Shown: positions 7,191-28,208, counted from the stretch's first letter. The stretch is DNA of 32,000 bases from Candidatus Babelota bacterium (GCA_039809905.1 JBDHVY010000001.1:1-32000), one strand, 5' to 3'. Numbers and translations: made by a program. Notes: generated by a model from the sequence alone, not told the origin.

Positions 7191-9080
7191 ATGACATATC
7201 GCAATCTATTTTTTTCTGGGCTAATGAGCATGTTTTGCTTCATTTCATTACCTATGTTGGCAGGTATGATGCCAAATATGGAAGATTTTGAAAAAGAACT
7301 TTTAGAAGCAAATAGAGCAATTGAAGAATACGTCGCAAGTCTTTCACCAGAAGAACAAGCAGCATTCAACAAACAAGTAGAAGAATTTTCACAACTGTTT
7401 GAAAATATGAGCGAGGATGAATTTGAACAGTTTTTAGGCGAAATGTTTGCTGATGAGCCAATGATGATGGAACCAAATCCATTTGATGTTCCTCAACCAA
7501 CACCACAAGAAGAAGTGGTTGAAGTTGTTTTAAGTACTGAAGATAAAAAGAAAGCAGAAACTGCTCTTGCCGTGCTTGATGATATTATTAAACAATCTAA
7601 CCTCTTTATGGTAATGATAAATAGTTCTTCAGATTTGCCAAACCGCATCAATCAATGGGCAAAAAAAGGTGACTTGCTTCACTGGCAAAGTGGAGCAGAT
7701 TGGGTAGCTTTCAAACTAGAACTTGATACATTTATTCAAAAGCTTTATAAAGCAGAAGAACAAGATTTAACAACTAAAAAATACAAATATCTTCTTGAAT
7801 TAATTGCTGATGAAAGTTTGTATAACAACCTTATTCAATTACAGACCGAGCTTAAAAAACTAATCCCAACAATCGAAATTCCAGAATTCAGTATCCAGAA
7901 ATTAAGTTCTGATACAAAAAAAGCAATAAAAAATGTTTTAGGTACCTATACAGAAAGTTTCTATTTACTCGGAACTCCTAAAGCACTTGATACTCTTTTT
8001 GAAAAATATGCACCAGAAGAAGAGAAAATACGTACCGCAGAAGAAGCGGCAAACAAAAGATCCCTTGAAGCCTCCAGAATGACGAGAACTCCTGCGGGAG
8101 AAACCCATGCTGGTATGGACGAGGATATGGGATATGGTGATTATGGTTATGGATACGATAATTACTATGGCGGCGGTTATGGATCTCCTTATGGTTATGA
8201 TAATTATGGCTATGACAATTATGGTGGTTATTCACCTGATTATGGCTCATATGGTTCTGATTATGGTACGGGCCGCAGTAATTCAGGTGGAAGAAGTGGT
8301 GGTGGCAGCGGTAGTTCCGGATCACGCGGCGAATCAGATTCTGAAAAATCAAAAAAAGATAAAGAAGATGAAGATAAAAAAGACAAAAAATCTAAGCCAG
8401 CACGATTTATACCTAACTATGATGTTGAACTAGCATTTGCAGATATCAAAAGTAATTTTAAAGATATCAACAGTCTTTTTGTAGATGAAGAAGAAAATAA
8501 AACCAAATTAGCTGATATTGCAAGCCATCTCAATGACGATAAAGAAGTGAATGTTATTCTTGCGGGAGCTACATTACCAACAGTAGAAAAAAAGCTTACT
8601 GCTATTTATGATGATCTTAAAAAAATCAATGAAAAAGTTGATGATAAAAAACTTAAAGCTGATGAATTAAGCTATTATCAGAAAGAAATCAACAAATTTT
8701 TTGATGACAATAAAAAAGAAGTGGAAAGCTTACGCACAGGCATAAATTCTTTTGAAGAAAAAACTGACGAACAAAAAGAAGCAGCAAAAAAAGAAGAAGA
8801 AGCTAATCCTTCTCCTGCAGAAAAACCTAAAAAAACCGATATTTCTGATCTTTCAGAAGAAAAACGATGGGCATATTTTGGTAAAGAAGTACCAGGTATA
8901 GATGAAAAACTTCAAGAAGCTATCACCTCAAAAGTATCACTGTTTGATATCAGAAGTAAAATTACTGACATTTTTGATGAACTAAAGAAATTTATGTCAA
9001 AAAAAATAGCTGTTCCAAAGAAAAAAGCTGAAACTCCAAAAGAATCCAGTTCTCCGGATAAAACTTTTGATCTTGATTAA
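7191..9080 (+). CDS. secreted acidic low-complexity protein with central G/Y-rich domain
   Basis: 629 aa. AAAGG lies upstream of the ATG. Leader MTYRNLFFSGLMSMFCFISLPMLAG. Acidic helical N-terminal half, a G/Y/S-rich block (approx 8112-8330), K/D/E-rich spacers and a K/E-rich C-terminal half. A strong terminator follows. Confidence 0.85.
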   Translation: MTYRNLFFSGLMSMFCFISLPMLAGMMPNMEDFEKELLEANRAIEEYVASLSPEEQAAFNKQVEEFSQLFENMSEDEFEQFLGEMFADEPMMMEPNPFDVPQPTPQEEVVEVVLSTEDKKKAETALAVLDDIIKQSNLFMVMINSSSDLPNRINQWAKKGDLLHWQSGADWVAFKLELDTFIQKLYKAEEQDLTTKKYKYLLELIADESLYNNLIQLQTELKKLIPTIEIPEFSIQKLSSDTKKAIKNVLGTYTESFYLLGTPKALDTLFEKYAPEEEKIRTAEEAANKRSLEASRMTRTPAGETHAGMDEDMGYGDYGYGYDNYYGGGYGSPYGYDNYGYDNYGGYSPDYGSYGSDYGTGRSNSGGRSGGGSGSSGSRGESDSEKSKKDKEDEDKKDKKSKPARFIPNYDVELAFADIKSNFKDINSLFVDEEENKTKLADIASHLNDDKEVNVILAGATLPTVEKKLTAIYDDLKKINEKVDDKKLKADELSYYQKEINKFFDDNKKEVESLRTGINSFEEKTDEQKEAAKKEEEANPSPAEKPKKTDISDLSEEKRWAYFGKEVPGIDEKLQEAITSKVSLFDIRSKITDIFDELKKFMSKKIAVPKKKAETPKESSSPDKTFDLD

Positions 9081-9106
9081 AAGATAACAAGCTCATCCGC
9101 TATGTT

Positions 9107-9137
9107 AAAGAGGCCTGCATATGCAGGCCTCTTTTTT
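9107..9137 (+). terminator. rho-independent terminator
   Basis: Palindrome AAAGAGGCCTGCAT|ATGCAGGCCTCTTT followed by TTTT, 27 nt after the stop at 9080. Confidence 0.9.
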
Positions 9138-9204
9138 GTTGCTGAAAGCTTTTCATAATATAGCAAGAATCATCAAGATAACCTTGTCTATTTTTTGTGT
9201 TTTT

Positions 9205-9335
9205 GCGCTCGCCCTTCAACGAGTTCCTACTTCGCCAAGGCTACGTCGGACACGTCAGAGCGAGCGCGGGATAAGACTTAAATCGGGTAATTTTAGCGGT
9301 GTACGCTATAGCACGAAAGCTATGTTTCTTTTTGA
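9205..9335. other. isolated GC-rich nested-hairpin element (candidate small structured RNA or relic of a GC-rich palindromic repeat)
   Basis: The 66 nt at 9205-9270 are 43/66 G+C by my count, against a ~30% background. GCGCTCGC (9205-9212) pairs with GCGAGCGC (9260-9267). This stem encloses CCTT..AAGG (9213-9216/9237-9240) and ACGT-CGGAC-ACGT hairpins. A small ATAGC/GCTAT hairpin plus T-run lies at ~9308-9335. No family recognised. Confidence 0.3.
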
Positions 9336-9430
9336 CAATATTAATTTGATTTTGTATTATTTTATTATAAACAATTAATTATAAATAGTTTATATTTGTA
9401 AAATCAAATCTAAAATTGAGAGGTTGCGCC

Positions 9431-9688
9431 ATGAACACATTAACTAAAATGACCATCGGATTATTGATATTTTATACGGCAGGATTCTTTGCAATGGATC
9501 GAGCTAATAATGCACTTAATCAATACAATGAACGAGTAAATAAAAGAGCATTTTTTGTTCAAAGAGCTATGAATACCATTAACAATCAAAATGAATCCAG
9601 AGAAAAACAAGGATTACCACGTCTTACTCCAGAAGAGATGTGCGTTATTTTTGAAACGCGAGAAAGCGATTCTGAAAAGCAAATCTAA
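9431..9688 (+). CDS. small secreted hypothetical protein (85 aa)
   Basis: The track ORF starts at 9416. ATG at 9431 follows GAGAGG. Leader MNTLTKMTIGLLIFYTAGFFA|MD. Confidence 0.7.
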   Translation: MNTLTKMTIGLLIFYTAGFFAMDRANNALNQYNERVNKRAFFVQRAMNTINNQNESREKQGLPRLTPEEMCVIFETRESDSEKQI

Positions 9689-9702
9689 GATAGGACCATA
9701 CT

Positions 9703-10830
9703 ATGAAAAAAATAGCTGCAATAACTTATGCCATTGCCTTGATGGTATGTGTTAATCTCACATGTTCAGAATTAAAGACTTTTAATGCCAAATCAAAAAG
9801 CTCTAATAAACCACTCAGTTTTGCTGAAAAAAAACTAGGTGATCATGCAAAAAGAATGGTTGAAACAACAACATATCAGCATGGCTCTTTTGAACACATT
9901 CGCGATTTAGCAATTTTAAGCGTATTACCTACTCCAATATCACAAGGAATATTGTCTCAACAAAGAAACAATATGCTAACATTTTTGGAAAAAAATGAAA
10001 AACAAGCACTGGAGGGAGTTAAAAATTATTGGGGTTTTGATTCAGCGACATGGTCAAATATTCTAGAAAAAAATAAAAAAGAACATGAATTTAATCTTGC
10101 AGAAATGAGAAAAAATACTGATAATCGAGCTACTTATCACAATCCATCTTTGCCTGCTGCATTCATGGTGGGAGTACAACGCGAATGTCTTCGGTATGGT
10201 TTTAATAAAAACAATTTTAACCTCGGAACAACGGATAATGTGCATGAATTAGCTCATTGCTTTGAACACAAACAGCTTGCGCCAAATATGTATACTCCTG
10301 CAAATGTTAACTTTAACTTACGTTATGCATGGCGTCCCCAAGAATCAATTGATGGCACAGCAACTCATGAATTTACCCACATAATAAAAGGTCATAGCTT
10401 GTTAAGGCAAAATATCGTCTATGGAGGCGGCGAGCAAATGATTAATAATATAAATGAGTACTGGCAACAAAATAAGCCAAGCTTTCTCGTTTTATTTAAT
10501 CCTTTTTATTCTATAGATGAAGACTTGAGAAAATTAGAACAATATTCTACAACGCAAATAGAGAAAATAGAGACTTATTCAGGTTCCTGTGAGGAAATGA
10601 ATCTTACCGCTGCTCAAGAAAAAACTGCCGATACTTATGTAATCTGTATCGATCCGCAAGCAGCAAAAAATGTTCCCTCTATTGTCCAATATTCAGGATA
10701 CACAGACAATCATAATGATATGAAAGTAATACACAGAAATTGGCAAGCAACTAGAGCGATCGAGGCTTCAAAACCATTGCGTCGAGCAATCGGCTCTGCG
10801 TGTGGCCAACAAGAATGTACTATTTTATAG
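9703..10830 (+). CDS. secreted hypothetical protein with two HExxH motifs (possible zinc metallopeptidase)
   Basis: 375 aa. Leader MKKIAAITYAIALMVCVNLTCS. Motifs NVHELAHCFEH and ATHEFTHIIKGHS. Family not recognised beyond the motif. Confidence 0.8.
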   Translation: MKKIAAITYAIALMVCVNLTCSELKTFNAKSKSSNKPLSFAEKKLGDHAKRMVETTTYQHGSFEHIRDLAILSVLPTPISQGILSQQRNNMLTFLEKNEKQALEGVKNYWGFDSATWSNILEKNKKEHEFNLAEMRKNTDNRATYHNPSLPAAFMVGVQRECLRYGFNKNNFNLGTTDNVHELAHCFEHKQLAPNMYTPANVNFNLRYAWRPQESIDGTATHEFTHIIKGHSLLRQNIVYGGGEQMINNINEYWQQNKPSFLVLFNPFYSIDEDLRKLEQYSTTQIEKIETYSGSCEEMNLTAAQEKTADTYVICIDPQAAKNVPSIVQYSGYTDNHNDMKVIHRNWQATRAIEASKPLRRAIGSACGQQECTIL

Positions 10831-10870
10831 TAATAAATTACGGTAAATCATTTCGATTAAAATTTTAGAG

Positions 10871-10902
10871 GCCTGCTGCTATTAAAGCAGGCTTCTTTTT
10901 TT
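10871..10902. terminator. terminator between convergent genes (9703-10830 and argR)
   Basis: GCCTGCT (10871-10877) / AGCAGGC (10886-10892), followed by TTCTTTTTTT on the plus strand. Confidence 0.75.
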
Positions 10903-11359
10903 ATCTCATTTTTAAATATGGAAAAAGCGATTCAAAGAGAGCAATAACTTCTTTGAGCGCAATTTTATTTTTTACAATAACCATAACAGTATCATCTCCT
11001 GCTATAGTACCCAAAATTAATGATTTTTGCTCATCATGAAGATCATAAGAAACATATTTTTGATCTATAAAATAAGCTAAGCTATTTGCATTACCTGGGT
11101 GAGTATGCAGAATAATCAATCCGGAATCGGAAGCCTTCATATTCAACACAACAGGCAAAGAAAATGAACTAAAATCAATAATCTTATAAACCCCATCGAC
11201 CTTAGCAATATTTAGTTTTTTGAGCTTTCTTGATAAGGTTGCTTGAGGCACATCGCATCCACGCAACTTCAATAACTCCTGTAGATCAGCTTGTTCTCGC
11301 ACTTGTTCATTCTGAATTATATTCATTATATGGTTTTCTACCATCTTTTTTGATTCCAT
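10901..11359 (-). CDS. argR: arginine repressor ArgR
   Basis: 152 aa. N-terminal winged-helix (QADLQELLKLRGCDVPQATLSRKLKKLNI) and C-terminal GTIAGDDTVMVIVKN oligomerisation/arginine-binding motif. Confidence 0.9.
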   Translation of the reverse strand: MESKKMVENHIMNIIQNEQVREQADLQELLKLRGCDVPQATLSRKLKKLNIAKVDGVYKIIDFSSFSLPVVLNMKASDSGLIILHTHPGNANSLAYFIDQKYVSYDLHDEQKSLILGTIAGDDTVMVIVKNKIALKEVIALFESLFPYLKMR

Positions 11360-11392
11360 TTTTTACTTTCTATATTCAAATTAAGCATATAT

Positions 11393-11410
11393 TTTGAAAA
11401 TATATTCAAA
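11393..11410. promoter_or_regulatory. ARG-box-like operator proximal to argR
   Basis: ttTGAAAatatATTCAaa compared with the E. coli ARG box consensus TNTGAATWWWWATTCANW. Lies 34-51 nt upstream of the argR ATG. Confidence 0.5.
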
Positions 11411-11415
11411 GCTGA

Positions 11416-11444
11416 TTGACTTGTCAAATATCTATTGCTATATT
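11416..11444 (+). promoter_or_regulatory. sigma70-like promoter for the DIT1/PvcA-like gene pair
   Basis: TTGACT (11416-11421), 17-nt spacer, TATATT (11439-11444), counted base by base. About 95 nt upstream of the ATG at 11541. Confidence 0.5.
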
Positions 11445-11449
11445 CATTA

Positions 11450-11478
11450 AGTGAATATTTATTGAATGCGCATTCATT
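11450..11478. promoter_or_regulatory. two overlapping ARG-box-like operators at the predicted transcription start
   Basis: agTGAATatttATTGAat (11450-11467) and atTGAATgcgcATTCAtt (11461-11478, perfect TGAAT/ATTCA palindrome), immediately downstream of the -10 element. Confidence 0.5.
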
Positions 11479-11540
11479 TTAGATAAAAACACGATTTTTT
11501 AACAATATCATCTAAATTCTGATCAATTATAAGGATTATA

Positions 11541-12707
11541 ATGAAATTTTATATAAAAGTTATGGCGATCCTTGGAGCTCTAACTATCTATAACAGCAAC
11601 TATTCGAGTGAATTACCTGGTTTTATTCAAAAATATCATAGCTCTATTCCGTCTCTCGAATATGATTCAAATAAAAGCTTTTCTCCAAAAGATCAGGCTT
11701 CCATTATTGGAAACTATCTTTGTAAGTTTATTCCACAAATCAAAACTTTATCCTTGAATGGGCATGATAAATTAGAAAACAAACTTGAATATCTGATCAC
11801 TAATCAAAAGCAGATACAGCTTGTTATTTTAGGTTTTCCTTTTAAATCAACTAATCATGAAAAAAAATGTTTGAGCTCAGAAGCTGACTTGGGAGAATAT
11901 TTAGGACTTACTACGCTTAATCAACTTGTGTACAACATTAAATTATTATATCCAAATACCCATTGCGCTATTATCTCAGATGGTCTTGCCTATCATATCA
12001 ATAATTATGATCCTTCTTATGAAGAAATTCATAATTATCATGCAAGAATAAACGATTTAACAACTCATTTTAAAAATGTATCATTTATACCATGGAAAAT
12101 TAACAACAAGTTGGGTTCGTATCAAGAATTACAAGAAGCTGTTGCTGCTGTTCCATTAGAAAATGAGGAAAATAGCGATCAAAAGCGCTATCAAGAAATG
12201 AAAGCTTTTGCTTCTAGTGAATTCAAGTGTACTCATTGGGAAAATTTTTTTCTCAATAAAGCTCTTAATTCATATAATGAAAGACAACAGTTTGAACAAA
12301 AAGAACTAAAGCAAAAAAACAAAGATCAAGCAATCAAAACTGAAAAAAATACTCTCATTGCAGAAAATATGAAGTTGATTATTCCTCAGCTTGTATATAA
12401 AGGAAAACAGTTTTCTACTTTAGTAAGCACGCAGTGGCCTGATTATGATGAATGCATACGTCTTTCTGTGCACTGTGATAAAAATGTTGTTGATGTATCA
12501 ACCAAAATACCCATAAATATTATATATGGACATTCAGGAACACCATGGCATAATGCAATAGTCATTGATAATACTGATACGCAAGTGAAAGGATTTGCTA
12601 AAGATATTTTCAAAAAAAATGATCTCAATCTTTTAGCTAAGTCCAAAAAAACATTTTCGTTAAAAACTCCCGCAGGTATACTACCATTATCATATATTGC
12701 TCATTAA
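11541..12707 (+). CDS. DIT1/PvcA family protein (isonitrile synthase-like), paralogue 1
   Basis: 388 aa. LVILGFPFKSTNHEKKCLSSEADLGEYLGL...LLYPNTHCAIISDGLAY matches the conserved core of the pyoverdine/dityrosine biosynthesis family (PvcA: FPAKSPN..KVLG..PD.AE...Y.PGA...I.SDG.VF). Hydrophobic N-terminus MKFYIKVMAILGALTIYNS. AAGGA SD. Confidence 0.8.
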   Translation: MKFYIKVMAILGALTIYNSNYSSELPGFIQKYHSSIPSLEYDSNKSFSPKDQASIIGNYLCKFIPQIKTLSLNGHDKLENKLEYLITNQKQIQLVILGFPFKSTNHEKKCLSSEADLGEYLGLTTLNQLVYNIKLLYPNTHCAIISDGLAYHINNYDPSYEEIHNYHARINDLTTHFKNVSFIPWKINNKLGSYQELQEAVAAVPLENEENSDQKRYQEMKAFASSEFKCTHWENFFLNKALNSYNERQQFEQKELKQKNKDQAIKTEKNTLIAENMKLIIPQLVYKGKQFSTLVSTQWPDYDECIRLSVHCDKNVVDVSTKIPINIIYGHSGTPWHNAIVIDNTDTQVKGFAKDIFKKNDLNLLAKSKKTFSLKTPAGILPLSYIAH

Positions 12708-12719
12708 TACGGATTTATC

Positions 12720-13739
12720 ATGCACATTAAAAAAATAGTCATTATCTTTACGGTTGTTTGTTTATCATTTTTTTTACAAGAACATTCGTATGTACCAAAA
12801 AATCATGCTTTATGTGATAGCAAAACAATAAAAAATATAGTTAATATTTTTCAACAACATACGTTAACATATGATATTGATAAAAAAAGTGTTAACGATA
12901 CAGATATTGCATTACATATACGCACGATAGATGAATATGCAGAATTATCCAGAAAGCTTGCTTATTTTATCAAAGAAGAAAAACCAATTATTCTTACTAT
13001 GGTAGGATTTCCATATAAGTCATCTAATACACAGGATAAAGTCATATCTTCTTGTGCAGATGCCGCCGAACGATATTCACTGGTCTATCTACAAAATTTC
13101 TTAAACCACATTAAATCCATTTATAAACCTGGTATAAAACTGCGCATTTTTACTGATGGGATAGCATTTTGCGATATAGAACAGGTGCCAGATGATATTG
13201 TAATGCAATACGAAGATACACTAAAAATCATAACGCAGGATCTTCCTGATATAGAAATATGTACCATGCGTGATTTATGTTCAAAACAATCCCCTATAGA
13301 AATACGAAAAAAAATATCAAACATGTATCCATCTCTTGAAGAATTTCATACTATGCTTGAAAATGATAAAAAGTTACAGGATGACACCAATATTCTTACG
13401 CAAAGAATGGATTTTGAGTTAGCTCTTTTATCATTGAGTGATGAACAAATCGCAAATATTGGATTACAAGAAATGCACAGAAGTCTTCAATATAGCACTT
13501 TTTTGAAACAATTTCGCCCAGAAGAAACTATTTCATGCTCTGTACACTACCAAAAAGATCTTTCCAAAAAAATTGGATTGAAATTATCTGATTCATGCGT
13601 AACTGCATGGCATGGAGTTCTTGTTGAAACAAATGGTAATTTTATTATTGAACACTTAAAAGATATTGATCTATCAAAGTATCAACGAACAGAATGGATG
13701 GTGAATGGCGTATCACTTCCATACTTGAAAAATACATAA
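12720..13739 (+). CDS. DIT1/PvcA family protein (isonitrile synthase-like), paralogue 2
   Basis: 339 aa. ILTMVGFPYKSSNTQDKVISSCADAAERYSLVYLQNFLNHIKSIYKPGIKLRIFTDGIAFCD is a closer match to the PvcA/Dit1 core. Hydrophobic N-terminus MHIKKIVIIFTVVCLSFFL. Starts 12 nt after paralogue 1. Confidence 0.85.
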   Translation: MHIKKIVIIFTVVCLSFFLQEHSYVPKNHALCDSKTIKNIVNIFQQHTLTYDIDKKSVNDTDIALHIRTIDEYAELSRKLAYFIKEEKPIILTMVGFPYKSSNTQDKVISSCADAAERYSLVYLQNFLNHIKSIYKPGIKLRIFTDGIAFCDIEQVPDDIVMQYEDTLKIITQDLPDIEICTMRDLCSKQSPIEIRKKISNMYPSLEEFHTMLENDKKLQDDTNILTQRMDFELALLSLSDEQIANIGLQEMHRSLQYSTFLKQFRPEETISCSVHYQKDLSKKIGLKLSDSCVTAWHGVLVETNGNFIIEHLKDIDLSKYQRTEWMVNGVSLPYLKNT

Positions 13740-13825
13740 ATATGGTTGCTTTTGAAATTTTTTACATTTTTTTATGGCTTTGCTATAGTAACAGCGAATT
13801 ATACGTCAAACAAAAGGAGTATTGC

Positions 13826-14500
13826 ATGTCTATACAAAAATTATGTCTTTTTCTATCGCTATTTAGCTTATGGACACATCACAGTTATTGCGCTATGAAT
13901 GAGATAGAACCCATTAAAATTGATAATGGATTATTAACAGAAGTACCAAAAATACTTCTTGCTACTAAAGGATATTTCTTCGATGGGGCTCGGCGTGTTA
14001 ATAAGGGTGTTTTGCGAGCAGATACTACATCTACTTTAGCAGAGTTAATGGCTATAAATCGTACAGAAATAGAGTTTGATCCTCTACAAAGAGGCATTCC
14101 CTATCTACTATTTTTTCCTACGGTAGTAAAAGCAATTGATAACAATCTCATAAATCTTGGCTCATATTGTAAAGCAAAACACAAAGAAGCAAAAGAAGCT
14201 TGTCGTCAAAACAAAGCTATTTTTTATCCTTTTCAACAAGGATTAATTATTTATAGTAACCAATTATCAGATTTTAAATTTTTTAGAGAAAAGAAAAAAG
14301 AATTAGAGGATATGGCTCATCACAATTTAGAGCAAAAGTTTCTTGCTTACACTTCTTTATTGCATGTTATTTCTGTTGAACCTGATTTTTCTGTTAAGCC
14401 TAAAAAAGACAATACAACTGTCGAAGAAAATAATGTGAATGCAACAACTAATAGCTTGGCACAAAGCGTTTTGAATTTCTTTGGAATTAACCCGAATTAA
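13826..14500 (+). CDS. secreted hypothetical protein (224 aa)
   Basis: The track ORF starts at 13694 and overlaps the previous gene. ATG at 13826 follows AAGGAG. Leader MSIQKLCLFLSLFSLWTHHSYCA|MN. Confidence 0.8.
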   Translation: MSIQKLCLFLSLFSLWTHHSYCAMNEIEPIKIDNGLLTEVPKILLATKGYFFDGARRVNKGVLRADTTSTLAELMAINRTEIEFDPLQRGIPYLLFFPTVVKAIDNNLINLGSYCKAKHKEAKEACRQNKAIFYPFQQGLIIYSNQLSDFKFFREKKKELEDMAHHNLEQKFLAYTSLLHVISVEPDFSVKPKKDNTTVEENNVNATTNSLAQSVLNFFGINPN

Positions 14501-14521
14501 AATTTAAATTTTTTCAAAGAT

Positions 14522-14558
14522 AAAAGAAGGGCCTGTAATTTACAGGCCCTTCTTTTAT
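14522..14558 (+). terminator. rho-independent terminator
   Basis: Perfect 16-bp stem AAAAGAAGGGCCTGTA (14522-14537) / TACAGGCCCTTCTTTT (14541-14556) with a 3-nt loop. Confidence 0.9.
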
Positions 14559-14698: not shown

Positions 14699-14989
14699 AT
14701 GAAAAAAATGATACTGATAGCTATTATAGCAGCAACAACTGCTTGCCAGATAGATGCAAAACTGACCCAAGCCGCACTTGCCAAGATAACCAGCACAGAT
14801 TTTGATACAATAATGGGATCTTCTTCAAGAGAAATGTCACAGCAAAGACTGAATAGATCTTGGCGTAATTTTTCATCATATCAAAAAAAGGATATTCTTT
14901 TGCATATGTATGAAGAAGGCGCATTATCTGAAGATGATGTAGTTAATTGGAATCTGAATCAGATACCACAAATCACTATCGGTGGATAA
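14699..14989 (+). CDS. small secreted protein, paralogue A (96 aa)
   Basis: GGGAGA SD. Leader MKKMILIAIIAATTACQIDA. The C-terminal 38 aa are nearly identical to paralogue B. Candidate promoter TTGTAA (14643-14648), 17-nt spacer, TATATT (14666-14671). Confidence 0.85.
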   Translation: MKKMILIAIIAATTACQIDAKLTQAALAKITSTDFDTIMGSSSREMSQQRLNRSWRNFSSYQKKDILLHMYEEGALSEDDVVNWNLNQIPQITIGG

Positions 14990-15037: not shown

Positions 15038-15041
15038 GTTC

Positions 15042-15159: not shown

Positions 15160-15456
15160 ATGAAAAAAATGATACTGATAGCTATTATAGCAGCAACAAC
15201 TGTCTGCCAAGTACATGCAAAACAGCCACAAAATGTGTTTGAAAACAGAATAAAGACAGATTTTAATGCAATAATGAACTCTTCTGCACGAGAACAAAAA
15301 ATGTCACAACAACGCCTGGATAGATCTTGGCCTTATTTTTCATCGTATCAAAAAAAAGACATTCTTTTGCATATGTATGAAGAAGGCGCATTATCTGAAG
15401 ATGATATAGTTAATTGGGATCTGAATCAGATACCACAATTCACTATTGGTGGATAG
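15160..15456 (+). CDS. small secreted protein, paralogue B (98 aa)
   Basis: Same SD and leader as paralogue A (MKKMILIAIIAATTVCQVHA). C-terminus SYQKKDILLHMYEEGALSEDDIVNWDLNQIPQFTIGG. Confidence 0.85.
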   Translation: MKKMILIAIIAATTVCQVHAKQPQNVFENRIKTDFNAIMNSSAREQKMSQQRLDRSWPYFSSYQKKDILLHMYEEGALSEDDIVNWDLNQIPQFTIGG

Positions 15457-20850: not shown

Positions 20851-21714
20851 ATGAAAAGAACATGGCATTATCTCATCATTATTTCTTTGATGGGAACCAT
20901 AATGGCACTAGAAGCAATGCTTACTACACAACAAGTAGCCAGAAGAGCTCCATCACAAACAGGTCGTCGTTTGATTTCAACAACTCCAGTTATGGCAGCA
21001 AAAAAACAACCAAAAGACAATACGCAAAACTTAAAAACACCCGGTGCCCCTAAAATAAAAAAATCTAAAACATTTGATAATTTAAGCGATAATTCCAATA
21101 ATCCAACGACTGTTTCTCAACCTCGCAAATCATCATGGTTATATCGTCTTTTTTTTGGTAAACCAATAGAAGAATCAAGAAGTGAATTAAGCGATCTTAT
21201 CGCTATGCCTACATTTAACAAAAATAATGTAGAAGAGGGAATAACATTAGTTAAAGAAATTAATTCAAAAAATCCAGCATATTTGAATGATAGCGGATTA
21301 CTTGATGAAATAGTACTTACAAGTTTTAATCTTCCGATTTTTTCAGAAAAACAAACTAATCTGATAACCTTAGCCAATTTTGTGGAAAGTCGTGATGGTC
21401 GTTTTAATAAAAGTATCGAATCATATATTGATCGTTATGAAAATTTAGTAGAAAGAGTATATCCACGATTACTGAGTGCAAAATTCAACAAAAAAGATCC
21501 TGTGGCGATAAAGCCTCGTTACAAAGCTGCTAAGCAGGTGATATTTATAGAAAATTTTTTTGATAGTCTTGATCAATTTTTAGGTAAATTTGTTCAAAAT
21601 GATTCGCAATTGTCAAAAAAACTAAAAGACATAACCAAAAAAAGAACGGTATTAAAAGAAGCCTTTATGAGAAAGGATGAAAAAAAGAAAAACGAAAGAT
21701 TAGCTACTGAATAA
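20851..21714 (+). CDS. secreted hypothetical protein (287 aa)
   Basis: AAGGA SD. Leader MKRTWHYLIIISLMGTIMALEA|ML, followed by a basic/polar low-complexity stretch. No recognisable domain. Confidence 0.8.
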   Translation: MKRTWHYLIIISLMGTIMALEAMLTTQQVARRAPSQTGRRLISTTPVMAAKKQPKDNTQNLKTPGAPKIKKSKTFDNLSDNSNNPTTVSQPRKSSWLYRLFFGKPIEESRSELSDLIAMPTFNKNNVEEGITLVKEINSKNPAYLNDSGLLDEIVLTSFNLPIFSEKQTNLITLANFVESRDGRFNKSIESYIDRYENLVERVYPRLLSAKFNKKDPVAIKPRYKAAKQVIFIENFFDSLDQFLGKFVQNDSQLSKKLKDITKKRTVLKEAFMRKDEKKKNERLATE

Positions 21715-21730
21715 AAGATTGTTAGTTAAG

Positions 21731-21762
21731 AAAAAGAACAGGCCGTAGCCTGTTCTTTTTTT
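21731..21762. terminator. bidirectional terminator between convergent genes
   Basis: AAAAAGAACAGGC (21731-21743) / GCCTGTTCTTTTT (21748-21760) with a CGTA loop. Confidence 0.9.
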
Positions 21763-21764
21763 GG

Positions 21765-21953
21765 TTATTCGATTGGCGGCATTGGAGGACGTTTTCCACG
21801 AAAAACACTACTAATAAGGGATAAAATAAACAATACTATGAATATGAAGAATAATATTTTTGCGATATCCATAGACATGCCTTCTACCGTGTAAAATCCA
21901 AAGTAGCCAGCAATGATTGAAAGAATAAGAAACGTAATAACTAAATGCAACAT
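21765..21953 (-). CDS. UPF0391/DUF1328-family small membrane protein
   Basis: 62 aa with two hydrophobic helices. MLHLVITFLILSIIAGYFGF...DIAKILFFIFIVLFILSLI resembles YtjA-type proteins. AAGGAG SD. Confidence 0.75.
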   Translation of the reverse strand: MLHLVITFLILSIIAGYFGFYTVEGMSMDIAKILFFIFIVLFILSLISSVFRGKRPPMPPIE

Positions 21954-22059
21954 GCAACACTCCTTAAAAATAATAAAATTTGTATAACAACTAACATAAA
22001 ACTAAAACAAAACAATAAGCAATTTTTTCTTAATGATAATTCATTATGAGAAAATACTT

Positions 22060-23106
22060 TCAACCTAGGCGCACTTTAGAAAAAAACTTTTTCGTTCGGG
22101 ACTTATTAATCTGTTCGTTTTTTGCTAATTCTGCTAACTCTTTTACTGTTTTTGCTCCATTCTTGAGTAATATTTCCTCAATTTTCTTAACAAAATCTTC
22201 ACCATATTTACTTTCGAGCAATTTCTTTTCTCCCTCAAACACATCTCGAACTGTTCTGACCACCACTGTTTCAATTTCAGGGTTCATCATCATCACAAAA
22301 CCATCCATAGTTTCGATTGCTTGTATGTTTTCTTGGTTTATATCACAAAGTTCACTGGCGATCAGTGAGTTGAATGATGGTAAACTTCCACAGAGTAAAG
22401 CCTGTATGATGAGAGAAGCTCCATTGTTTTTAATATAAGACTGTGTCTTTTCATGATTAATAAATACATCAAGCGTTTGTGTATCGTTATTATTTATTAC
22501 AACATTAAGCCCATGTAACAACGAGGTATCATCTGAAAGATTTTCTGGAAATTCGATAAGAGCTTTTTTAACACGTTCATTATTTCGCGATATACATCCA
22601 ATTAAAAATGGATTAATCGTGCATTCAGAAGGATCTCCCATACATCTGTGTTTTATGAAATGTTTTTTTAACGAACACATCCTTTCATTCTTAAGGTCAA
22701 TAATTTCATAAGGATAAACTGCATAATTAGTCCCAGGGATTCTGTACCATCTATGATTAACAGCACTATTACTACTCAAAATTTGTGCAATCTCATAGTT
22801 ACTATCATATAAAGCCGTAATCAAAATGCTTTTATAATCTCTTTTGTATACATATGGATTATTACAATCAATAAAACCAAGAGATGGCTGACAGAACGAA
22901 AAAAAGATACTTAATTGTTTTGACGTTTTACGTAATACATTGATTTCTTTAGGATGAAGCAATGCAAAAATAATTTTGCGCTCATCAGCACGCTCTTGAA
23001 GTAATAAACTATCCAATACACCACTTGGCTTATCCATTGAAAAAGAAACAGCAGTCATTAAAAGTGCTAATGACTGCTGTTTTAGTAACGAAAAAAATAA
23101 ATTCAT
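22060..23106 (-). CDS. F-box-like protein with degenerate ankyrin-like repeats, paralogue 1
   Basis: 348 aa. AAAGGAAAG SD. Leader ...LALLMTAVSFS|MD. F-box-like ERKIIFALLHPKEINVLRKTSKQL. C-terminal NPFLIGCISRNNERVKKAL / LLHGLNVVINNNDTQTLDVFI helical repeats align with paralogue 2. Confidence 0.7.
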   Translation of the reverse strand: MNLFFSLLKQQSLALLMTAVSFSMDKPSGVLDSLLLQERADERKIIFALLHPKEINVLRKTSKQLSIFFSFCQPSLGFIDCNNPYVYKRDYKSILITALYDSNYEIAQILSSNSAVNHRWYRIPGTNYAVYPYEIIDLKNERMCSLKKHFIKHRCMGDPSECTINPFLIGCISRNNERVKKALIEFPENLSDDTSLLHGLNVVINNNDTQTLDVFINHEKTQSYIKNNGASLIIQALLCGSLPSFNSLIASELCDINQENIQAIETMDGFVMMMNPEIETVVVRTVRDVFEGEKKLLESKYGEDFVKKIEEILLKNGAKTVKELAELAKNEQINKSRTKKFFSKVRLG

Positions 23107-23271
23107 AACTTTCCTTTTGCTTTATACCATTTTTTTTCAAAAACATATATTTAAGCATAAAAACAAAACAGAAAAGTTTATATATTTTTTCTTAATGATA
23201 AATCATTTTAAATTTTCTTTATTTCTTTTTTTGTTTTACATAATAAGCAAAAGCATTATGCGACGACTTTT

Positions 23272-24369
23272 TTATTTCTTATTCTTAATGCTTTTTTTAG
23301 TCTTTTTTTCATCCAAGCATTTAAATTTTTTTAATATCCCTAATTGTTCTTTGTCAATTACCGGAACTGGGGGATTAAACTTCGATAATTCTTTTTTTCT
23401 TTTACCAACTACTATGTTTAAACATCGATAATATCGAGGCAAATTATTCTCATTGCTATTTATTAAATCGTGGTGATAAAGTTTTGTCAATTGAGCGCAA
23501 CTGCCATCTTTTATAGGACTTTTTTTATCTAAAAACTTGTAAAAATAATCCATATTTTTTTCTATACTAATTCTTTCCATCTTGCATTGTGTTAAAAATG
23601 CTTTGTAAGAATTATTTATTAAAAACATAACTTTATCGCTTCCATTAAATAGAGCGCATTGCAGTAATCGCACAGACATAGAACTCATCTTTTGTCTATT
23701 TTCCCTGTCTTTCAAAAGATTATATAAAGATTTGATATCATTGTTTTGAATAAGAATATGTAATCCTAGTTCAAAATTATAATTGCGCAAATCTTTGGGA
23801 ATGGCTTTGAATGCTGTTTCAACCAAAGCAGAATTGCCTATAATGCATGAAGCTATGAATGGGTTTACTGGTTCTGATTTTTTATTCTTATTAATACATA
23901 CAATTTTAAATGCATCTTGTGTGTTATCAGGAAAAATCCATCCTATACGCTCAAATTTTCCGGATATGGAATAAAAACACTCATTCTGGAGCTTGTGTTC
24001 GGATACATACGTAATAAATTCAAGTTTTTTATCTCTAGATGTGAAAGTACCTTCATGTTCACAAATAGCTTGAATAATAATACGCGCAAAATCACGCTTA
24101 CTTGCGCATAAAGCTTTACAGATCATAAAATCTTGTACTGTTTGCCGAGATAGCTCATCACTGAAATATTTGTTTGTTAAACGCAAAGCATTTTTTGTAG
24201 AAGGATCAAGACTAGGCAACATATAACGAATTATCTCTTTAGGAAAAAAATCAAAAACGCCATTTCCTTGAGACGAATCCATTGACAATATAATAGAAGA
24301 AAAAAAAGTAACAAAGAATATAAAAGGTATTCGAAAATAAGAGGTAAGCATCTGTGTATAGTCTTTCAT
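23272..24369 (-). CDS. F-box-like protein with degenerate ankyrin-like repeats, paralogue 2
   Basis: 365 aa. FFPKEIIRYMLPSLDPSTKNALRLTNKYFSDEL fits the F-box pattern LPxEIxxxIxxxLxxxxxxxLxLVxKxW. NPFIASCIIGNSALVETAF / ELGLHILIQNNDIKSLYNLL are ankyrin-like. The start could instead be Met7. Confidence 0.7.
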   Translation of the reverse strand: MKDYTQMLTSYFRIPFIFFVTFFSSIILSMDSSQGNGVFDFFPKEIIRYMLPSLDPSTKNALRLTNKYFSDELSRQTVQDFMICKALCASKRDFARIIIQAICEHEGTFTSRDKKLEFITYVSEHKLQNECFYSISGKFERIGWIFPDNTQDAFKIVCINKNKKSEPVNPFIASCIIGNSALVETAFKAIPKDLRNYNFELGLHILIQNNDIKSLYNLLKDRENRQKMSSMSVRLLQCALFNGSDKVMFLINNSYKAFLTQCKMERISIEKNMDYFYKFLDKKSPIKDGSCAQLTKLYHHDLINSNENNLPRYYRCLNIVVGKRKKELSKFNPPVPVIDKEQLGILKKFKCLDEKKTKKSIKNKK

Positions 24370-24651
24370 GTTGAGAGTTATTTATCATTTGCATATAGCT
24401 TACAGTGTTTTATGTTTTTTGTAAAAATTTCTTATGGAATTTTAGCTCTTTTGCTCTATAAAATAATGCATTTTTCTTTAACATCACAACCCTTTTACAT
24501 AAATGATTAACATCAAGCTCCGTTAATCATGGGATATATTTATTAAACGATCAACGATATATTTATGCAAAAATAAAAAATGCGATGTATAAAGGCTTTT
24601 CTTTCCATTTCTATGTCAACAAACTTAAATTTTTTAACATGCTTTAAAAAA

Positions 24652-24710
24652 ACTTAAAAAAAATGCCACAATCAATGAAATTTTTATTCTTTTTTTCATC
24701 AATTGTGGCA
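24652..24710 (-). terminator. candidate terminator of the 24868-25527 gene
   Basis: Imperfect 17-bp inverted repeat TGCCACAATCAATGAAA (24664-24680) / TTTCATCAATTGTGGCA (24694-24710), 15/17, followed on the minus transcript by T8. Confidence 0.55.
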
Positions 24711-24867
24711 AACGTTTTTTACTAATGCCTAGAAAAATATTGCTGGAATAATTCTTGCAAAATAAGGTTAAATTTAAATGCGTTTTTGTTTTTTTTAAAA
24801 AAATATTTTTATTTTTTTTTTTTATAAAAACAAAAATTGTGATATATGCGAACTCATTTTTTTATCT

Positions 24868-25527
24868 TCACTCTTTCGACAATCGCACTCGCTCTTCTTC
24901 TATTTCTCGTGCTCGTTTACGGGTGAGCTCATCTCGCTCTTTTTGTTCTTGTGTTTTTGCCTCTCGTCGTATTGTAGCAATTCGCTCTTGCTCAGCTTCT
25001 TTAAGCTGTCGATCCCAAAACGCAGCTGTTTTTGCTTTTTCTAATTCTAATTCTGCTTGTTCATCTGCAGCAATTAACTTGTTGACTTCTCCCATATGCT
25101 CAGTTTGCATGTCACTTGCCGCTTTCTTTTTAGCTTCACGCATTTTTTGAGTTTGAAACAGATCAATAATAAAACCTTTAAAATTTTGCCAACCTAAAGA
25201 AATCCTTGTCATTAAATTATTTTGTTGAGGTTCAAAAGAATTGATAGGCACTGCATTTTTGGGCTCCTTTTTGCTGAACTCAGTTACTGGCTGGCTAGGC
25301 ACAAGCCCAAGTTTTTTAAATTCTTCATTTATCTTTTCTTCAGCTTCTTTTCTTTTTTTTTCTTGCAATCGTTGTTCTTCTCCACGTGAAGGATAAGGCC
25401 AACGAACATATCCTCTTCTTCCTACAGTGGTTGCTCTTTGCGCCGATCTTGTTGCTAGCATTGCATAGGAATTGATAGCACCAAAAACAGATACTCCTGC
25501 GATACTGTACATAACATATTTTTTCAT
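24868..25527 (-). CDS. secreted K/E-rich coiled-coil hypothetical protein
   Basis: The track ORF starts at 25539. ATG at 25527 follows GGGAG. Leader MKKYVMYSIAGVSVFGAINSYA|ML. The C-terminal half is charged heptad-like sequence (EAKKKAASDMQTEHMGEVNKLIAADEQAELELEKAK...). Confidence 0.8.
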   Translation of the reverse strand: MKKYVMYSIAGVSVFGAINSYAMLATRSAQRATTVGRRGYVRWPYPSRGEEQRLQEKKRKEAEEKINEEFKKLGLVPSQPVTEFSKKEPKNAVPINSFEPQQNNLMTRISLGWQNFKGFIIDLFQTQKMREAKKKAASDMQTEHMGEVNKLIAADEQAELELEKAKTAAFWDRQLKEAEQERIATIRREAKTQEQKERDELTRKRAREIEEERVRLSKE

Positions 25528-25654
25528 AACATCTCCCATTATTTTTATTACATCCTCAAGTATATAATAAAAACAAATATGAGCTCAATAAACTATTGTT
25601 ATTTATTTTTGGCCAAAAATACAATTATGATATATCACGATATGCTATAATCCA

Positions 25655-25692
25655 AACAAAAAACCCTTTTATCGTTGTATAGATAAAAGGAT
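25655..25692 (-). terminator. rho-independent terminator
   Basis: CCTTTTATC (25665-25673) / GATAAAAGG (25682-25690). The minus transcript continues GTTTTTTGTTT. Confidence 0.75.
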
Positions 25693-25715
25693 TTTATAAA
25701 AAATTTAAGTCTAAA

Positions 25716-26303
25716 TTATGAGTTCGCTGCTTTCATTTGCTCTTGTTTTTTAAATGCTCTTACTTTTCTATTAAAAGCAAGCCCTTCTTCTCGCTTAAGC
25801 AATAGGCATTCTCCACTGACAGCATTGTTATAAAGATTGGTCATTGTACCTTTTAGCTTTACTATTGCATCACGCTGAAATGAAGTTATTTTACCTAATG
25901 CAACTTTATAATCTAATTTTGCATCAGTATTTTTCGTCATAAAACTACGAAAAACTTTAACTGTATTCACTATACATGGATTAGCAAAAGAATTAACTAA
26001 AAAACCAAGATATCCTGAATGCCCCAAAGCATCAATATCACAGTCGTTAAGTTTTGCTCCTTCAGAACGAAGCATATTGATATGTAATCCTGGTGCTTTA
26101 TCTATAATCGCATCATAGAGCACTGTATGGCCATCTTCATCTATGTCATTAATCCTACTCGTATCTTTTGGAGAGCGTTTTGGGCCGAAAGGTTTTATTT
26201 TTATTGCCTTAGTAATGAGCCGAGCAGGATTCATACCATGCACTAAAGCCATATTACCGAATAAAGCAACAATAATTGCTAATAATATTTTAATTTTTTT
26301 CAT
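25716..26303 (-). CDS. secreted protein with one ankyrin-like repeat
   Basis: The track ORF starts at 26333. ATG at 26303 follows TAGGAGG. Leader MKKIKILLAIIVALFGNMALVHG|MN. DEDGHTVLYDAIIDKAPGLHINMLRSEGAKLND fits the ANK consensus (D.dG.T.L..A......v..Ll..GA..n). Confidence 0.75.
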   Translation of the reverse strand: MKKIKILLAIIVALFGNMALVHGMNPARLITKAIKIKPFGPKRSPKDTSRINDIDEDGHTVLYDAIIDKAPGLHINMLRSEGAKLNDCDIDALGHSGYLGFLVNSFANPCIVNTVKVFRSFMTKNTDAKLDYKVALGKITSFQRDAIVKLKGTMTNLYNNAVSGECLLLKREEGLAFNRKVRAFKKQEQMKAANS

Positions 26304-26442
26304 AATGCCTCCTAAAAATTGCCTATTATTCATATTTAATTATGCGAGAATATTTGCAATTTGTCAAATGCGGCTATTTTGATGCTTTATAGCATTATTC
26401 CCGCGCTAATTGCTCGTTTTTCTTGATCTGCTCAAGCTGAGC

Positions 26443-27369
26443 TTAGACATCCAACAAATTACTCATTTTTCTTTCAGGAGAAGCTTCCAATCGCTTAATT
26501 CGCTCAATATCTCCTAAATAAAGCTGGGTAGTAGTAGGAGCAGTGTGACGCATGGCAAGTTGTACTTCATAAAGCGAAGCCCCTGCTTGCATAGAAAGAA
26601 CACCAAAAGTGTGCCGAAGACTGTGGGCAGTAATACGCTTACTATCAAATCCTGCCGCACGCAAACGACTTTTAATAATGCGAGAAAGAGAATATATCGT
26701 TAAACGCTTACCATAATTACGATCACTTAAAGAAATAAAGAGCGGTTCTCGCTCACTTTTTACCACTCGCATTTGAAGATATTCATATAACGAGGTAAGT
26801 GTTTGTGGAGTTAGCAATACAAATTCATCTTTACTTGATCGCCCTTTTCCGTGAATCCATAATAACATTTCACCTCGCTGCTCATACATATCTTCTAATA
26901 ATGCTGATGCAACTTCTTTTAACCGCAATCCAGTACGCACCAAAATATTAATCAATGCAAAATCACGTTTACCGCACAGATCAGAACGATCAATTGAATC
27001 AAGCAATTTTTTAAGTGCATCAATTGATAACGATTCTTTTTGATGACTTTTTGAATAGCGTTTAATCCCTTTTACTCCTCGTGAAATATTAGGATACAAA
27101 TCACTTTCTTCTGTCCATAAAAAAAATCGCCGAACTACTACAATATACATTGCTTTAGTATATGAGCTGAGCTGTTTTGAATCGAGCCAGAATTTATATG
27201 ATAAAATTGTTTCTTTCTTAGGACTCAGTATTTGTTTTTCTTTGCACCAACGAGCAAATTGAACCAATGCATTGAGATACGATGAACGAGATGCAAGGGA
27301 AATATCTTGCGATGCAATAAAAGGATGGATAAATTCATCTATATTAAATGGTGTTGAAGTAGCATTCAT
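26443..27369 (-). CDS. tyrosine site-specific recombinase (XerC/XerD / phage-integrase family)
   Basis: The track ORF starts at 27402. ATG at 27369 follows AAAAGGA. Catalytic residues lie in TGLRLKEV (Arg), AHSLRHTFG (His-x-x-Arg) and AMRHTAPTTTQLYL (His...Tyr). N-terminal SAM-like core-binding domain. Confidence 0.9.
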   Translation of the reverse strand: MNATSTPFNIDEFIHPFIASQDISLASRSSYLNALVQFARWCKEKQILSPKKETILSYKFWLDSKQLSSYTKAMYIVVVRRFFLWTEESDLYPNISRGVKGIKRYSKSHQKESLSIDALKKLLDSIDRSDLCGKRDFALINILVRTGLRLKEVASALLEDMYEQRGEMLLWIHGKGRSSKDEFVLLTPQTLTSLYEYLQMRVVKSEREPLFISLSDRNYGKRLTIYSLSRIIKSRLRAAGFDSKRITAHSLRHTFGVLSMQAGASLYEVQLAMRHTAPTTTQLYLGDIERIKRLEASPERKMSNLLDV

Positions 27370-27408
27370 AAAAATCCTTTTTCTATACAGATATGATAAC
27401 AAAAAAAA

Positions 27409-27445
27409 TTGACCTATAACAGCATTGTTATGTAATCTATAGGTC
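27409..27445. promoter_or_regulatory. nested inverted repeat overlapping a sigma70-like promoter in the recombinase / zinc-finger divergent spacer
   Basis: Outer inverted repeat GACCTATA (27411-27418) / TATAGGTC (27438-27445). Inner inverted repeat ATAACA (27416-27421) / TGTTAT (27426-27431). TTGACC (27409-27414), 18-nt spacer, TAATCT (27433-27438) on the plus strand. Confidence 0.35.
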
Positions 27446-27491
27446 GTTATACCAGCACTAGTAATTTTTAACCAAAAAAGAAAAACCTATA

Positions 27492-28208
27492 ATGAAAAAA
27501 ATAGTAGCATATTCTTACCTATTCTTTTTTGCATGTTCGATTCAGCAACATTTATACAGTTCCATGCAAAAACCAAAACAAAAAGATCTCATGGTGGCTC
27601 TACAGGCAATGAAACGACCAAGAACAGAATATCTTGCAACACAAAACCCAAAAAAAGAAGATCTTGTACCAGCACTGCAAGCAATGAAAAGACCAAGACC
27701 TGAGTTTGTTGTAAATGAAAAAGCACCCAAAAGACAAAAAATAACAGCCAAAACTTTTGAACATGATAAAAATAAACATATAGAAAAGAAACGATATCCA
27801 TGCAATTTATGCCCTTCATCTTTTGATCAATCAAAATCTCTTGAAATACATACGAGAATTCATACAGGAGAAAGACCCTTCTCGTGTACTGAGTGCACAG
27901 ATTCGTTTATACGCAAGGAACATCTGACAAGACATATGAATATTCATACAGGAAAAAAGCCTTATGAATGTGCAACCTGTTTCAAATCATTTGCACTAAA
28001 GCAAACTCTCAAAGAACATATAAGAATTCATACAGGAGAAAAGCCATATAAGTGTGATTTATGCCCAAGATCATTTACGAAACTATACGGTTTAAATATT
28101 CATCGTGATACCCATAACGATGAAAAAAAATTCCCCTGTAATCTGTGTGATGAAAGATTTACCACGCATGGTAGTCGATCAAAGCATATAGAAAGAAAAC
28201 ATTCTTAA
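27492..28208 (+). CDS. eukaryote-type C2H2 (Krueppel-like) zinc-finger protein with five tandem fingers, Sec-like leader and NLS-like repeats
   Basis: 238 aa. Five C-x2-C-x12-H-x3/4-H units joined by HTGERPF / HTGKKPY / HTGEKPY linkers. N-terminus MKKIVAYSYLFFFACSIQQHLYSS|MQ, then two 23-aa repeats containing ALQAMKRPR. Stop lies 3 nt before the murD ATG. Confidence 0.9.
   Translation: MKKIVAYSYLFFFACSIQQHLYSSMQKPKQKDLMVALQAMKRPRTEYLATQNPKKEDLVPALQAMKRPRPEFVVNEKAPKRQKITAKTFEHDKNKHIEKKRYPCNLCPSSFDQSKSLEIHTRIHTGERPFSCTECTDSFIRKEHLTRHMNIHTGKKPYECATCFKSFALKQTLKEHIRIHTGEKPYKCDLCPRSFTKLYGLNIHRDTHNDEKKFPCNLCDERFTTHGSRSKHIERKHS

Follow-up and report, generated by a model that had tools for sequence, protein, structure and literature searches.

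The Dependentiae, a phylum that parasitises protists, amoebae among them, are widespread and have hardly been brought into culture. Up to 44% of their genes have secretion leaders, and we know of no means so far of telling their host-directed effectors from ordinary periplasmic proteins. In cultured members, most ANK effectors are reported to have Sec leaders (Babela massiliensis, PMC4378268; Chromulinavorax destructans, PMC6561590), and the type II system is the sole secretion system detected in Babela (PMC4378268). Here we analyse a 32,000-nucleotide stretch of DNA from Candidatus Babelota bacterium (GCA_039809905.1 JBDHVY010000001.1:1-32000, "the window" below), in which nine exported accessory proteins encoded between positions 7191 and 28208 have a short hydrophobic leader followed at once by a methionine, which would be residue +1 of the mature protein. 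The effectors of the two papers come from the same phylum and have the same architecture, a signal peptide on ANK or other eukaryote-like proteins; their passages on signal peptides and secretion describe the leaders and make no mention of the +1 residue, and we found no description of a Met(+1) rule in the accessible literature.

Three better-known systems offer comparisons. In the Q-rule of Bacteroidetes, Gln at position +1 of signal peptidase I (SPase I) substrates is cyclised to pyroglutamate (PMC5837995, PMC10653852). Like the Met described here, it is a lineage-specific, strongly over-represented +1 residue after a type I leader; it was found by tabulating +1 residues and was proposed to stabilise exported proteins. 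However, the Q-rule covers most SPase I substrates, including periplasmic ones, whereas the Met rule is absent from housekeeping periplasmic proteins and implies no modifying enzyme. The nine proteins do not belong to the Q-rule, their +1 residue being Met and restricted to a class, and the Q-rule paper (PMC5837995) has nothing on Met, TM6 or Dependentiae. Anthrax edema factor, a Sec-secreted toxin that acts in the host cytosol, has the mature N-terminus MNEHYTES; its potency differs by a factor of more than 100 depending on the N-terminal residue, in keeping with the N-end rule, and a destabilising Asn is exposed when the Met is lost (PMC3755998). N-end-rule control of potency has also been described for lethal factor (PMC2518864). 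The stabilising Met of edema factor precedes Asn as it does at two window junctions, VHG↓MN and YCA↓MN (the arrow marks the junction), but edema factor is a single Gram-positive toxin with a translocation system of its own, whereas the Met rule concerns hundreds of unrelated proteins phylum-wide and is known from sequence. Finally, the mature N-terminus x-E/Q/D left by PEXEL processing confers export in Plasmodium (PMC10653839). There too an intracellular parasite marks its host-directed proteins at the mature N-terminus, with an acidic residue or Gln beside the new terminus; PEXEL, however, is eukaryotic and involves plasmepsin V of the endoplasmic reticulum, the motif RxLxE/Q/D and N-acetylation, so that with no homology of sequence or machinery the likeness is an analogy only.

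A scan of species-representative genomes anchored on IleRS places the window, which is AT-rich (~33% GC), in the Babeliales (Candidatus Dependentiae/TM6), with IleRS identities of 68-79% to the nearest genomes (L002-L006, L039 and L065). Between its housekeeping genes (RuvC, DnaB, L9, IleRS, MurD, FtsW and ThyX) lie many small open reading frames (ORFs) with N-terminal hydrophobic leaders. The first-pass annotation of this DNA had put the number of leader-bearing proteins in the region at 17; we count 15 such ORFs within 7191-28208, and a 922-aa protein and two type IV pilin-like proteins lie elsewhere in the window. The nine Met codons it had listed are all ATGs at the positions given in Table 1, each directly after an uncharged hydrophobic leader, and its leader lengths of 21-29 aa hold once four ORFs are begun at downstream ATGs supported by a Shine-Dalgarno (SD) sequence (9431, 13826, 25527 and 26303) and not at the longest-ORF starts. 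Two of the proteins, those whose genes begin at 23106 and 24369, are paralogs, so the nine junctions are not nine independent events.

Junctions were counted with a predictor-free statistic, [A/G/S/C/T]-Met 2-12 residues past the best hydrophobic 8-mer, and compared with 500 local shuffles of the 44 residues after the hydrophobic core. It replaced a crude (-3,-1) cleavage predictor blind to +1, which had placed many sites out of register and recovered four of the nine window junctions. Gene calls and leader detection are heuristic, and the junction percentages have a noise floor of ~8-10%, equal to the shuffle expectation. The sampled DNA is that surrounding two anchor genes separated by ~17 kb in the window genome: ileS, which is inside the window, and an M17 peptidase gene just past its right edge. 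Eighty metagenome loci anchored on the M17 aminopeptidase, largely non-overlapping with the ileS-anchored set, served as a replicate; HtrA neighbourhoods are the same ileS-DnaB-RuvC block and were excluded as a replicate. The outgroup, a small one of 32 leader proteins, consists of ten Aeromonadales loci picked up in the IleRS-anchored scan. In two long-read metagenome-assembled chromosomes IleRS is called as several fragments (L073 391-3200; L077 2072-4908), which indicates assembly frameshift errors or pseudogenisation and calls for caution with protein N-termini from these assemblies.

The leader↓Met pattern is real, lineage-wide and non-random. Nine of the 19 leader proteins of the window have it, against a shuffle mean of 1.8 (z 6.0; the maximum in 500 runs was 5), which bears out the earlier assertion that the hits exceed chance. 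The close clade without the window gives 30/60 against 6.4 expected (z 9.5; maximum of 500 shuffles 14) and other Dependentiae 91/364 against 29.2 (z 13); in the M17-anchored replicate the values are 39/111 against 9.5 for close relatives (z 11.4) and 36/186 against 13.3 for the others (z 6.9). Altogether, 205 junctions occur in ~740 leader-bearing proteins from 138 related loci, where ~60 are expected from local shuffles. The Aeromonadales outgroup shows no enrichment (4/32 against 3.0), and leaderless proteins show little or no excess (z -0.6 to 2.9), the slight excess among them probably reflecting leaders missed by the filter. The junction rate is 47-50% in the window's clade (47% in the window and 50% in its ileS-anchored relatives, with 35% in the M17-anchored replicate) versus 19-25% in the rest of the phylum, and three still closer syntenic contigs have the junction in most of their exported ORFs. 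When Met frequency is plotted by absolute position, a peak at residues 21-27 is seen only in close-clade leader proteins. Junction proteins are spread over 86 of the 242 leader-bearing BLAST families, so the cases are largely independent.

The Met is not distributed evenly over exported proteins. In the strong-rule clade, exported families of housekeeping type stay at the noise floor (2/20 for thioredoxin-like proteins, 0/9 for an 850-aa protein, 0/8 for a lipoprotein and 1/6 for a pilin-like protein), whereas 51-90% of the members of rare accessory or eukaryote-like families (C2H2, ANK, WD40 and orphans) have it. Rare families of that clade have it in 45/89 members, over 41 of 78 families, and the C2H2 family in 8/9 members at six loci (Fisher p = 0.0016); the Pfam content of junction-positive proteins is enriched for C2H2, ANK and WD40. 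Among the 33 nearest Dependentiae orthologs of HtrA, residue +1 is mostly Q, S, A, D or H, and the site mostly reads xYA↓Q. The exported window proteins that lack the Met are two DIT1/PvcA enzymes, a BNR protein and one unknown protein. The suggestion of the first-pass annotation that the pattern might reflect a lineage-wide signal-peptidase preference is excluded in its general form, because the housekeeping substrates of the same genomes are at chance and show no Met preference. A narrower form would place a preference for P1' Met in the SPase I of the lineage, or in a paralog dedicated to such substrates as SipW of B. subtilis is to TasA. It agrees with the difference in rule strength between lineages, and dedicated peptidases with distinct P' preferences are known (PMC10269814). 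The same housekeeping substrates argue against it, however, and the sampled loci contain no SPase I gene (the motif GDNRxxSxDS has no match in any of them); we regard this explanation as very unlikely.

The leaders themselves look like ordinary type I signal peptides. All nine have a positive n-region and an uncharged hydrophobic h-region, within the usual limits of about 7-15 residues for the h-region and 18-30 aa overall, and the median leader length over 130 junction proteins is 22 aa (interquartile range 19-25). When no small residue is imposed at -1, the residue before the junction Met is enriched for G (2.3-fold), A (2.1-fold) and also C, with F, D, E and W under-represented; no charge occurs from -6 to -3, and Met is the only residue enriched (2.1-fold) after (-3,-1)-compatible positions. 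I, L, A, S, T, C or V stands at -3 in 79% of 188 non-redundant junctions. The "small-x-small" ending that had been described for the window leaders holds at -1 (G, A, A, A, S, S, A, G, S) and not at -3 (L, F, Y, L, S, I, S, V, Y), where six residues are aliphatic or small and three aromatic (F or Y). Judged by sequence, the junctions thus conform to an SPase I site with a small -1 and a small or aliphatic -3 residue, and we infer that signal peptidase I would cut directly before the Met, the exact position being a prediction. Two other kinds of leader were considered and rejected: none of the nine has the Cys at +1 of a lipoprotein (SPase II) leader, and their hydrophobic segment stands before the Met and not after the cut, as it would in a type IV prepilin leader. 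A true lipobox protein of related loci (LLPSC↓G) never carries a junction Met. Several orthologs in related loci keep the Met after a Pro at -1 (L068 1886-3013, LLP↓MD; L005 2321-3049, LHP↓MK; L072 1-363, NSP↓M), and these proteins are either cut elsewhere or cut by another protease.

Could the junction ATG be a start codon? The free energy (dG) of the anti-SD duplex averages -5.0 at the leader starts of junction-positive genes (51% at or below -5) and -4.8 at those of junction-negative genes (52%); junction ATGs average -1.2 (12%) and random internal ATGs -1.7 (11%). The earlier observation that no consistent Shine-Dalgarno motif precedes the internal ATGs is therefore correct, their dG being equal to that of random internal ATGs. 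Since SD sequences stand at the leader starts, and since the leaders are conserved in frame as peptides among orthologs, ORF-extension artefacts and dual initiation are rejected. In favour of dual initiation, eukaryotic dual-targeted genes classically have a conserved in-frame ATG right behind the targeting peptide; if the junction ATG were a second start, it would give a leaderless cytoplasmic isoform. But an SD of -5 or better is about as common at junction ATGs as at random internal ones and far commoner at leader starts, the residue after the Met is unlike that of a true N-terminus (below), and it is hard to see what use C2H2 or ANK effectors would be as isoforms in the bacterial cytoplasm. 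Dual initiation is hence scarcely credible.

The residue that follows the junction Met is distinctive. Lys makes up 2-3% of cases, as opposed to 10-37% at true position 2; acidic residues make up 28% versus 11% in the local sequence (odds ratio 3.2, p 1e-9), basic residues 4% versus 14%, and D, E, N or Q 41% versus a local background of 23% (p 1e-7). E, D and Q are enriched directly after the Met also when a small -1 is not required. Small residues that permit Met removal by methionine aminopeptidase (MetAP) are depleted (26% versus 37%, p 0.002), and hydrophobic (NatC-type) residues show no enrichment.

Comparison of homologs shows families of two kinds. In several window effector families the Met is always present while its flanks diverge completely: in 6/6 members of the 23106 family at 27-70% identity (SFS↓MD, SFS↓MD, AFS↓MD, IWG↓MQ, ALN↓ME, VFG↓MQ), in 3/3 of the 24369 family (orthologs LLP↓MD in L068 and LFS↓MN in L071), in 5/5 of the C2H2 family (SAT↓ME in L006; NAA↓MK, LNA↓MK and LHP↓MK in L005), and in 2/2 members each of the 20851 family (ALEA↓ML in L068) and the 26303 family (VSS↓MG in L071). 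In other families every member has a leader and only some have the Met. The +1 residue of FAM2 is Met in the window, L071, L072, L039 and L004 and Gln in L005, L006, L065 and L003; one of four FAM25 members has Met, the window reading YCA↓MN versus CYA↓AE in three homologs (two in L005, one in L039). The BNR protein has it in 2/4 orthologs and the M17-linked hydrolase in ~4/9, and HtrA reads VQC↓MQES in the L065 lineage versus VQC↓VQES and xYA↓QE elsewhere. The heuristic also made false junctions, in FAM2 of L041, where the Met aligns to -3 (MHA↓A), and in HtrA P0010, where it is at -4 of xEYG↓QE.

These observations bear on the idea that the Met is a fossil. Leaderless ORFs, acquired or newborn, might have gained a 5' extension that became a signal peptide, leaving the old start as a passive remnant. 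This would suit the enrichment in eukaryote-type domain families and orphans; some sequences after the junction are start-like (↓MKRARPE, ↓MKTRSR and ↓MKRFRN, C2H2 paralogs in L005), and T-rich leaders could come from upstream DNA. A neutral relic, however, should not keep its Met amid randomised flanks, nor should the Met occur in only some orthologs of all-leader families such as FAM25, BNR, HtrA in the L065 lineage and the M17-linked hydrolase; moreover no SD relic precedes the junction ATGs, the post-Met residue is Lys-poor and acidic-rich, unlike true position 2, and no leaderless homolog beginning at the junction Met was found among the homologs examined. Junction frequency is barely lower in broader families. 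The longest exact word common to any two of the nine leader DNAs is 11 nt, with no nucleotide motif round the junction beyond the codons, so a comparison of these leaders for shared ancestry yielded no common cassette. The first-pass proposal that a Sec leader was grafted in front of the original start codon of acquired genes may be how some acquired families, C2H2 for example, arose, but it fails as a general account because there is no SD relic, the post-Met residue is acidic and Lys-poor, the Met is patchy in all-leader families and is kept where flanks have diverged, and the nine leaders have no DNA in common. We consider a fossil start improbable.

In our reading the Met(+1) is neither a start codon now used, nor the neutral remnant of one, nor a general peptidase requirement; the rule is most pronounced in the window's clade and less so elsewhere in the phylum. 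The explanation that we tentatively propose, at a probability of about 0.4, is that the nine leaders are ordinary Sec (type I) signal peptides, cleaved from accessory and for the most part host-directed proteins of an intracellular parasite, and that Met(+1) is a selected, class-specific mature N-terminus. SPase I would cut after A, S or G and leave a mature protein with Met as its first residue and usually Asp, Glu, Gln or Asn as its second; Sec export would favour early mature residues that are acidic and not basic. The proteins may then be delivered to the host cytosol via the type II secretion system reported for the phylum. Under eukaryotic N-degron rules an exposed Asp, Glu, Asn, Gln or bulky residue would be a destabilising N-terminus in that cytosol, and a Met before such residues, a "Met cap", would be stabilising and eukaryote-like and would not be removed by the host MetAP. 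Three results fit a Met cap: the post-Met residue is acidic-rich, it is basic-poor, as suits Sec export, and it is depleted of MetAP-permissive small residues. Anthrax edema factor offers a direct precedent. The broader proposition, that a Met-(Asp/Glu/Gln/Asn) N-terminus is a functional code that marks the host-directed effectors of the phylum and is read by the host N-degron machinery or by the parasite's outer-membrane export route, seems to us to have slightly better than even odds.

A related idea of the first-pass annotation was that Met-Asp/Asn/Gln/Leu termini, the classes acetylated by NatB and NatC, mimic nascent host proteins. Part of this survives: a Met-Asp/Glu/Asn/Gln N-terminus fits both the post-Met statistics and the precedent of a Sec-secreted toxin, while the hydrophobic (NatC) class is not enriched. 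Literal acetylation mimicry of host proteins is doubtful, because NatB and NatC normally act co-translationally, and N-degron avoidance is the more defensible form of the idea.

Several points weigh against the Met cap explanation. N-degron logic does not explain why Met should be used instead of Ala, Ser or Gly, which are likewise stabilising; the acidic bias after the Met may be a general bias of the early mature region in Sec export; and that these particular proteins reach the host cytosol is an assumption taken from the literature. The junction Met is missing from 10-50% of accessory exported proteins, and a few junctions have Pro, Asn or Arg at -1 (LLP↓MD, LHP↓MK and ALN↓ME above), where an SPase I cut is not expected. 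The tabulation is confined to two anchor neighbourhoods. Averaged over 26 families, conservation of the junction Met is 0.25 versus ~0.3 for its neighbours, strong constraint being seen only in particular effector families; this average is diluted by broad clusters of repeat-domain proteins and by false junctions called in families that are membrane-anchored (pseudopilins, Lnt-like, FtsW), and the per-family alignments are more informative.

The main rival to the Met cap is a sorting signal: the N-terminal Met-(acidic) set free by cleavage would be read inside the bacterium as a linear signal and would tell cargo of an outer-membrane route, either type II secretion or vesicles, from proteins that stay in the periplasm. 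Conservation of Met in particular would then be explained, and the idea accords with the class specificity (housekeeping periplasmic proteins at chance, accessory proteins at 51-90%). Precedents are the +2 rule of lipoproteins and, in Plasmodium effectors, the mature N-terminus left by PEXEL processing. One residue plus a charge bias carries very little information, however; many accessory exported proteins have no Met, no receptor candidate was identified, and the type II secretion signals characterised so far are, to our knowledge, conformational. On the favourable side again, the phylum has hundreds of effectors of unrelated fold and a single secretion system for them (PMC4378268), and export in Plasmodium owes its specificity to mature N-termini (PMC10653839). 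The lineage-specific preference raised earlier may take the form of a sorting signal confined to this class or of a dedicated peptidase. We judge the sorting tag itself to be unlikely; our computations do not separate a Met cap from a bacterial sorting signal.

Table 1. Window genes whose leaders are followed directly by Met (SD values are anti-SD duplex dG)
Protein	Coordinates	Strand	Leader	Junction	Met codon	SD	Remarks
629-aa conserved Dependentiae exported protein (FAM2)	7191..9080	+	residues 1-25	LAG↓MM	7266	-4.0 start, -1.5 junction	
85-aa orphan	9431..9688	+	21 aa	FFA↓MD	9494	-7.0	start ATG 9431, not TTG 9416
224-aa exported protein (FAM25)	13826..14500	+	23 aa	YCA↓MN	13895	-8.4	start 13826
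287-aa orphan	20851..21714	+	22 aa	LEA↓ML	20917	-5.0	
348-aa accessory protein	22060..23106	-	23 aa	SFS↓MD	23037-23035	-5.8	weak sub-threshold ANK-like match
365-aa paralog of 348-aa protein	23272..24369	-	29 aa	ILS↓MD	24282-24280		
219-aa Lys/Glu-rich orphan	24868..25527	-	22 aa	SYA↓ML	25461-25459	-7.3	start 25527 (gene caller)
195-aa orphan	25716..26303	-	23 aa	VHG↓MN	26234-26232	-10.2	start 26303; AGGAGG
238-aa eukaryote-type tandem C2H2 zinc-finger protein	27492..28208	+	24 aa	YSS↓MQ	27564		zf-H2C2_2 5.6e-36, zf-C2H2 3.3e-22

Some features of these proteins are not covered by the table. The 85-aa orphan has no homolog that we could find in close loci. No SD precedes either candidate start of the 365-aa protein; its upstream start is supported because the N-terminal MKDYxxMLT is conserved as a peptide. 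An F-box identity of this protein and its 348-aa paralog, suspected by eye, has no Pfam support even at E<=1. The C2H2 protein has a duplicated basic segment after its leader (…ALQAMKRPRTEY… / …ALQAMKRPRPEF…) that resembles a nuclear localisation signal. The FAM2 protein contains a Tyr/Gly/Asp-rich low-complexity stretch, GYGDYGYGYDNYYGGGYGSPYGYDNYGYDNYGGYSPDYGSYGSDYG, encoded at window positions 8100-8350, and its mature N-terminus is Met/Gln-rich.

The FAM2 gene always adjoins pilin-like genes. In the window these are two overlapping ORFs on the minus strand (6332-6841 and 6831-7160) with a KxGF(S/L)L prepilin motif (KKGFSLLSFL and KNGFLLVEL), the first having a weak sub-threshold N_methyl match (E 0.006); the pair adjoins the 629-aa protein gene throughout the clade and probably encodes pseudopilins of a type II secretion or type IV pilus apparatus. 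Further left, the 922-aa leader-bearing protein (496-3264, minus strand) has a long run of degenerate ~20-aa repeats (…LSVTDLVVLSC(I/M)D(N/S)LCV(T/N)…) and a C-terminal Peptidase_S74 intramolecular-chaperone domain (E 1.7e-12), a module typical of phage tail fibres and endosialidases; its homologs adjoin RuvC in L075, L077 and L078. At 3891-4230 there is only ~340 bp, with a 66-aa ORF, whereas in L073, L075 and L077 the interval between DnaB and RuvC holds one HtrA/DegP gene or two; the window genome has therefore either lost HtrA here or moved it elsewhere. The two DIT1_PvcA-family proteins (isonitrile/dityrosine-type enzymes, E ~1e-32) are encoded in tandem at 11541-13739 and have signal-peptide-like N-termini, an unusual location for the family. 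Two tandem paralogs of ~97 aa (14699-14989 and 15160-15456) have near-identical lipobox-like leaders (MKKMILIAIIAATT(A/V)C↓Q…) and conserved C-terminal halves (…YQKKDILLHMYEEGALSEDD…), with no Pfam match.

If the Met(+1) rule is what we propose, effectors in Dependentiae genomes could for the first time be recognised by a sequence tag, a simple and testable mark for their prediction. The rule would also be the second lineage-specific "+1 rule" after the Q-rule of Bacteroidetes, within an otherwise universal Sec/SPase I pathway, and it would tie the design of bacterial signal peptides to the eukaryotic rules of N-terminal protein stability.

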